NCBI RefSeq assembly: GCF_000027125.1
Contig: NC_017626.1
Origin: Escherichia coli 042
GTDB taxonomy: Bacteria; Pseudomonadota; Gammaproteobacteria; Enterobacterales; Enterobacteriaceae
Length of the DNA stretch: 64,000 nucleotides
Reading direction: 5' to 3' (one strand)
Part shown: in pieces, positions 59,108 to 59,207 of the stretch
How the letters are laid out: the number at the start of each line of letters is the position of its first letter
Numbering within the stretch: the stretch's first letter is position 1
Translations under genes and position numbers: made by a program
The notes under the pieces: model-generated
What the model saw: only the letters and a program-made list of their open reading frames with translations
What the model was told of the DNA's origin: nothing
Database searches by the model: none

Positions 59108-59207
59108 ATATCTGTAATAAGAAATAGCCCTCGCCGCTTCCCTCTACAGGAATGGCGAAGGGCTGTCGGTTTCGACATGGTTGGCCATCGTATGATGGCC
59201 TTTTTTA
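59108..59207 (+). ncRNA. sdhX: Candidate 3'-UTR-derived sRNA SdhX (RybD) ending at the sucD terminator
   Basis: Two stem-loops directly after the sucD stop: AGCCCTCGCC...GGCGAAGGGCT, then GGCCATC-gtat-GATGGCC followed by TTTTTT; assignment rests on recalled K-12 annotation. Confidence 0.5.

Follow-up and report, generated by a model that had tools for sequence, protein, structure and literature searches.

SdhX follows sucD in Escherichia coli 042 and forms the left edge of the variable sucD–cydA locus

Within the 64,000-nucleotide stretch of the Escherichia coli 042 chromosome analyzed here (the window), positions 59108–59208 of the plus strand represent the sdhX gene. SdhX is a small RNA that depends on Hfq and is released by RNase E from an operon mRNA at its 3′ end, and we assign a probability of roughly 95% to this explanation of the element. 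The first-pass annotation had proposed a candidate SdhX in the 3′ UTR of sucD. This proposal was borne out by a gap-free alignment in which 100 of 101 nt matched the ncRNA sdhX of MG1655 (b4764, NC_000913.3 765050–765150), which is curated as 'small regulatory RNA SdhX' and occupies the same position. The sole mismatch to K-12 sdhX is found at 59207 (nt 100, A instead of G), past the U-tract, and 59108–59206 are identical. Besides identity and position, the structure, the target complementarity, and the downstream breakpoint of SdhX were determined directly in this analysis. The features of the gene and its surroundings are as follows:

58238–59107, plus strand: sucD, 289 aa (ORF list; annotation of N3 and MG1655)
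59108–59208, plus strand: sdhX, full-length SdhX/RybD sRNA of about 101 nt (orthologue of MG1655 b4764)
59126–59164, plus strand: hairpin 1, a strong hairpin and the variable, Escherichia-specific part of SdhX (MFE and centroid structures)
59136–59149, plus strand: katG-pairing stretch, SdhX nt 29–42, GCUUCCCUCUACAG (duplex prediction)
59171–59208, plus strand: expected short processed form, i.e., the last 38 nt with seed and terminator (from the literature)
59171–59181, plus strand: seed UUCGACAUGGU with the core CGACAU at 59173–59178 (sequence given in PMC6393394)
59183–59206, plus strand: Rho-independent terminator, GGCCAUC-GUAU-GAUGGCC followed by U6 (terminator scan and fold)

The stop codon of sucD (TAA) is located at 59105–59107, and sdhX begins at the very next base. 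sucD is the final gene of an intact sdhCDAB-sucABCD operon upstream of sdhX. An extent of 59108–59207 had initially been suggested for the sRNA; its start was retained, and its end was shifted by 1 nt, as the curated 3′ end corresponds to 59208. Positions 40000–64000 of the window are collinear with the annotated strain N3 (98–99% identity), REP-element polymorphisms excepted. REP-type elements (Rfam naRNA4, 77–87 bits) were found at 52420–52490 (minus strand), 52515–52585 (minus strand), and 56913–56983 (plus strand), between sdhB and sucA and between sucB and sucC; they are absent in N3, where the alignment shows gaps of 181 bp and 195 bp. The best match to 44000–64000 among 5426 complete E. 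coli genomes was 99.0% identical over the 20 kb, and the lineage of the source strain is not closely represented among these genomes. Further features of the window include a cluster of seven tRNA genes (4845–5546, minus strand) and a match to the Rfam sRNA family ES036 (8305–8347, plus strand; 41.1 bits vs. a gathering score of 37.6).

Application of Rfam 15 to the whole window at gathering score gave no SdhX match, and a search of 59000–59800 at E ≤ 10 returned chance matches only (isrD, 17.3 bits, E 1.2). As the K-12 RNA does not differ from 59108–59206, an SdhX model is evidently missing from Rfam, which also accounts for the absence of annotated features under the matches listed in other RefSeq genomes. 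The lack of both explains why the first-pass annotation went no further than a candidate. No promoter-like site was detected on the plus strand between 58800 and 60000.

The region 59105–59210 folds with an MFE of −42.1 kcal/mol, compared to −25.5 ± 3.1 kcal/mol for 200 dinucleotide-preserving shuffles (z = −5.29), none of which was as stable. Two consecutive stem-loops and a U-tract had been noticed behind the sucD stop codon at the outset, and this description holds for the two strong elements, i.e., hairpin 1 (59126–59164) and the terminator hairpin (59183–59200) with its T6. The terminator hairpin consists of 7 bp, five of them G-C, with the loop GUAU, and the T6 is located at 59201–59206. 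A generic terminator scan yielded two sites vs. 1.2 expected in 1.2 kb, which is not significant alone; its plus-strand site lies exactly here. This terminator is that of the operon and is presumed to be, at the same time, the Hfq-binding 3′ module of the sRNA. A third, weak hairpin of 4 bp (59165–59176) overlaps the seed. In the full-length MFE structure, part of the seed is held in this hairpin, and the A-rich 5′ tail pairs with the U-tract; if these predicted structures are real, the seed would be less accessible in the 101-nt form. The weak hairpin is gone in the fold of the 38-mer (59171–59208), which leaves the seed unpaired. By analogy to Salmonella, we expect this 38-nt form, the equivalent of SdhX2, to occur in this strain as well.

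SdhX is known to repress ackA and, in E. coli, also katG and fdoG (PMC6393394, PMC9438474). The seed UUCGACAUGGU is described as lying directly 5′ of the terminator, and its core CGACAU as the complement of ackA codons 1 and 2 (PMC6393394). In the window, the seed ends at 59181, 1 nt before the hairpin starts at 59183. ackA, katG, and fdoG are located outside the window, and pairing was computed with the genes of other E. coli genomes. Nine contiguous Watson–Crick pairs form between 59172–59180 (UCGACAUGG) and ackA −2 to +7 (CCAUGUCGA), covering the start codon and the second (UCG) codon. The duplex of the seed region with ackA reaches −16.7 kcal/mol, a value equalled by 0.7% of shuffled seeds. 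ackA itself is present in 5424 complete genomes, and its identity is ≥ 99% in 5405 of these. For katG, a 14-bp duplex is predicted between 59136–59149 and positions −21 to −8 (CUGUAGAGGGGAGC), i.e., the Shine–Dalgarno region, including one G-U pair. The best duplex of the hairpin 1 region with katG has a predicted energy of −34.3 kcal/mol (equalled by 0.7% of shuffles), and the published exchange C34G weakens it to −29.9 kcal/mol. Counted from 59108, the published mutant positions carry C at nt 34 and G at nt 62 (59169). With seed, katG stretch, C34, G62, and terminator all intact, every nucleotide known to matter is thus present.

All but one of the 5426 complete E. coli genomes (5425) contain the 101-mer, with ≥ 99% identity in 4225 of them. 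Conservation of SdhX across Enterobacteriaceae has been documented (PMC6393394, Fig. 1A), and the RNA is regarded as unusual for its poor conservation outside the short seed (PMC6393394). In an alignment of 11 E. coli sequences (the window and 10 variants), the seed and the terminator stems are invariant. Substitutions fall into the 5′ tail (59121), the loop of hairpin 1 (59143), its upper stem (59153), and the terminator loop (59190), the latter position being G, A, or T among strains. Strain Ecol_743 carries both 59143 T>C and 59153 T>G, and strain S87 has lost 7 nt (59150–59156) from the upper stem of hairpin 1. The exchange at 59143 (U36C) sits in the katG-pairing stretch and weakens the predicted katG duplex from −34.3 to −29.5 kcal/mol. 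Variants of hairpin 1 may represent a lineage-specific tuning of a target that is used only in Escherichia. A natural disruption was observed in E. coli FDAARGOS_944 (L010, ~470–530), in which an IS1 is inserted inside sdhX at the equivalent of 59180/59181, where it lies ahead of the terminator hairpin and parts the seed from the Hfq-binding 3′ end.

This pattern bears on the question of whether the 3′ element merely stabilizes and terminates the mRNA, without giving rise to a functional trans-acting RNA in this strain. Termination is certainly part of its role, and removing the entire 3′ UTR is reported to lower SucD levels (PMC6393394). However, the identity to K-12 extends over all experimentally important nucleotides, i.e., seed, C34, G62, and terminator. 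Moreover, diverse E. coli share one unchanged seed but differ in the loops, which argues for selection beyond termination, and the target site in ackA is near-universal. We therefore regard a role limited to the mRNA as very unlikely and keep to the reading of 59108–59208 as the gene of a regulatory RNA.

Downstream of sdhX, the window departs from K-12. Similarity to K-12 had been predicted to end at about 59210–59400, with the sRNA and its terminator forming the conserved left border of a variable region. We compared 59000–64000 to K-12 765000–773500 by blastn (word size 7, E ≤ 1) and obtained one match (59058–59210, 99.3%) and nothing significant beyond. K-12 homology stops at 59210, 4 nt past the T-run, and does not resume up to the end of the window. 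The prediction was right in its lowest value; the border is sharp (59210/59211) and is not spread over the suggested range. K-12 homology running on through 59400 would have spoken against a border at this site, and the claim stands with the match ending at 59210. In N3, K-12 homology returns after about 14 kb, at a distance of 373 bp upstream of cydA. The following features were assigned to the border and the sequence behind it:

59207–59211, no strand: breakpoint, with 59208–59210 (TGC) as the last bases shared with K-12 (blastn and multiple alignments)
59205–59305, minus strand: convergent rtcB remnants in two blocks (blastn and tblastn vs. the intact rtcB of STEFF_1)
59773–60678, plus strand: gene of a LysR-family regulator, the first intact gene of the cluster (ORF list; annotation of N3, MS1050, and O157:H7)

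Five junction types part at 59207–59211, namely those of the window, of K-12 mngR, of an intact rtcB, of a TPR gene, and of an mngR fragment. Since all of them separate at the same few positions, the fixed left edge of the sucD–cydA locus is made up of SdhX with its terminator, and the border role proposed for them was confirmed. Junction-spanning probes of 300 nt (≥ 80% coverage) assigned 3867 of the 5426 genomes to the mngR type, 832 to the window type, 547 to the TPR type, and 297 to the type with intact rtcB; these counts are approximate (their sum of 5543 exceeds 5426), as each probe includes 250 nt that are not part of sdhX. The interval holds mngR-mngAB in K-12, rtcB and hut genes in STEFF_1, and a TPR gene, an rtcB fragment, and a LysR cluster in MS 21-1. 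An rtcB remnant followed by a LysR/cobO/fumD/methylaspartate cluster is shared by the window, N3, and O157:H7. The sucD–cydA interval corresponds to 59209–64000 in the window and to 20312–34280 in L002. In MS 21-1, the LysR gene contains an internal stop, and the rtcB fragment measures 597 bp.

Directly behind the border, the first ~100 nt consist of pseudogene remnants of rtcB (RNA ligase family) and not of functional island genes. In STEFF_1, an intact rtcB is convergent on sdhX, and blastn against this gene matched 59201–59246 (93.5%) and 59249–59305 (91.2%). The first block (59205–59246) comprises the last 15 codons and the stop (tblastn, aa 451–465 at 87%), the second (59249–59305) corresponds to about aa 375–394, and ~175 bp are missing between them. 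As two separated parts of the STEFF_1 gene are matched, the window carries a decayed rtcB. Its stop codon (TAA) is read on the minus strand at 59205–59207 and overlaps the SdhX U-tract, and the translation of the remnant ORF ends with ...PAVRFRPWLTFKA, followed by the stop, like intact RtcB. A longer remnant reaching 59493 (tblastn, aa 312–398, 33%) was discarded, as its score derives from the 59249–59305 block and the remainder is near noise; blastn detected no rtcB similarity past 59305.

The mechanical ORF list contains two reading frames on the minus strand at this site, one of 81 aa (58933–59178) and one of 63 aa (59205–59396), either of which could in principle encode a small protein. 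The 81-aa ORF is antisense to sucD and SdhX and is a shadow ORF of the type to be expected on the strand facing a GC-rich gene. The 63-aa frame represents the fused C-terminal remnant of rtcB with its internal deletion. Neither is annotated by RefSeq in the collinear N3, and no feature lies under the 101-nt match among the matches listed. A small protein as the actual product of this site therefore has next to no probability compared to SdhX.

An AT-rich spacer (GC 0.33–0.42 at 59400–60400) lies past the rtcB remnant. Nothing supports either a hypothetical protein annotated in MS1050 between sdhX and LysR or a 48-aa ORF of the window (59356–59502). On its minus strand, the spacer before LysR also contains a hairpin that resembles a terminator (59384–59401), with a T-rich tail and no intact gene upstream; it could be a relic or have arisen by chance. 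The LysR gene is followed by cobO and a class I fumarase gene. This cargo is the known LysR/FumD/methylaspartate cluster for glutamate fermentation; the FumD/methylaspartate cluster has been described for O157:H7 (PMC4682846). The window holds the first ~4.8 kb of the cluster, and the right end, upstream of cydA, lies outside.

Such a sharp border could also point to site-specific insertion, with the hairpin and T-run serving as a shared bidirectional terminator or as an att/recombination site of a mobile island. Convergent genes indeed end at the hairpin (the mngR stop of K-12 lies 2 nt past sdhX, and that of rtcB overlaps the U-tract), four or more alternative contents start within 5 nt of one point, and the GC content falls to 0.33–0.42 just past the border. 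However, the hairpin is followed by AACCAUGUCGAAACC on the minus strand, i.e., not by a U-run, so that the terminator is unidirectional and not a canonical one for a convergent gene. The 12 genes annotated in the complete N3 island include neither an integrase nor a transposase nor a tRNA gene. A search within ±150 nt of the N3 island ends found no repeats of ≥ 9 nt, either direct or inverted (66 of 200 shuffles give one by chance). In addition, the alleles, with rtcB present as an intact gene, a fragment, or a remnant, resemble nested deletions or replacements. We thus consider an insertion site or a shared terminator highly improbable as the explanation. The N3 island differs in composition from the flanking core (GC 0.474 vs. 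0.542 for sdh-suc and 0.533 for cyd), and the segment past the border represents a replacement allele lacking the hallmarks of a mobile element and not a classical integrative island.

Compared to SdhX (RybD) of K-12, the window shares the position, length, seed, katG stretch, G62, terminator hairpin, and U6, and differs at nt 100 and by an rtcB remnant downstream, where K-12 has the mngR stop codon 2 nt beyond the sdhX 3′ end. No functional difference from K-12 SdhX is expected. An identical 101-nt sdhX with the same junction type as in the window is present in the O157:H7 strain PV15-279. With SdhX1 (87 nt) and SdhX2 (38 nt) of Salmonella, the window has in common the location at the operon 3′ end, the seed, and ackA as the primary target, and the counterpart of SdhX2 is 59171–59208. 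The region from the stop codon to the seed is not conserved between Salmonella and Escherichia (PMC6393394). According to the literature, Salmonella SdhX lacks the katG-pairing stretch, the targets fumB and yfbV are lost in E. coli, and the 14-bp complementarity to the Shine–Dalgarno region of katG is specific for Escherichia/Shigella. CpxQ, SroC, NarS, and MalH likewise derive from mRNA 3′ ends, carry a seed before a Rho-independent terminator, and are Hfq-dependent, promoterless, and processed by RNase E; they differ from SdhX in their parent operon, seed, and targets.

RNase E cleavage has been shown to produce SdhX species of ~101 and ~38 nt in the absence of an own promoter (PMC6393394, PMC9438474). 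In the strain under study, SdhX would be expected to be transcribed, processed by RNase E, bound by Hfq, and active as a repressor in the way described in the literature on K-12 and Salmonella. SdhX would then be made whenever the TCA-cycle operon is transcribed as the ~10-kb sdhCDAB-sucABCD mRNA, with transcription stopping at 59183–59206. RNase E would release the ~101-nt and ~38-nt forms, both presenting 59171–59181 as a single-stranded seed and both bound by Hfq. Pairing of the seed across the ackA start codon would block translation initiation and lower the amount of acetate kinase, thereby tying the expression of the TCA cycle to acetate and acetyl-phosphate metabolism. In Escherichia, 59136–59149 would additionally pair with the Shine–Dalgarno region of katG, and G62 (59169) would join the pairing with fdoG. 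A need for this RNA and terminator in all strains would account for their place as the fixed left edge of the multi-allelic interval, which in this strain holds rtcB remnants and then the LysR/cobO/fumD/methylaspartate genes, in replacement of mngR-mngAB of K-12.

In every common allele, the stop codon of a convergent gene or remnant (mngR or rtcB) lies 0–2 nt from, or overlaps, the 3′ end of SdhX. This arrangement raises the idea that the SdhX terminator is more than a passive border and that the neighboring allele sets the level of SdhX via antisense read-through. We consider this improbable, if somewhat less so than the alternatives discussed above. Read-through from mngR or rtcB would give an RNA antisense to SdhX, so that strains could differ in their SdhX level and, consequently, in the control of ackA and katG. 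If this were true, the decay of rtcB in the lineage of the window would have removed an antisense input to SdhX.

SdhX behind sucD is an already known and characterized sRNA of E. coli, and its finding in the window is correct and ordinary. As 5425 of the 5426 complete genomes have SdhX, its unchanged presence in a further E. coli lineage was to be expected. The RNA is well studied as a link between the expression of the TCA-cycle operon and acetate metabolism, and the present data add little beyond annotation in this respect. Among the genomes listed, sdhX is named only in the curated MG1655 record, an annotation gap that an Rfam family would close. The breakpoint shared at the 3′ end of SdhX provides a clean anchor for typing the mng, rtcB/hut, TPR, and glutamate-fermentation alleles of the sucD–cydA locus.
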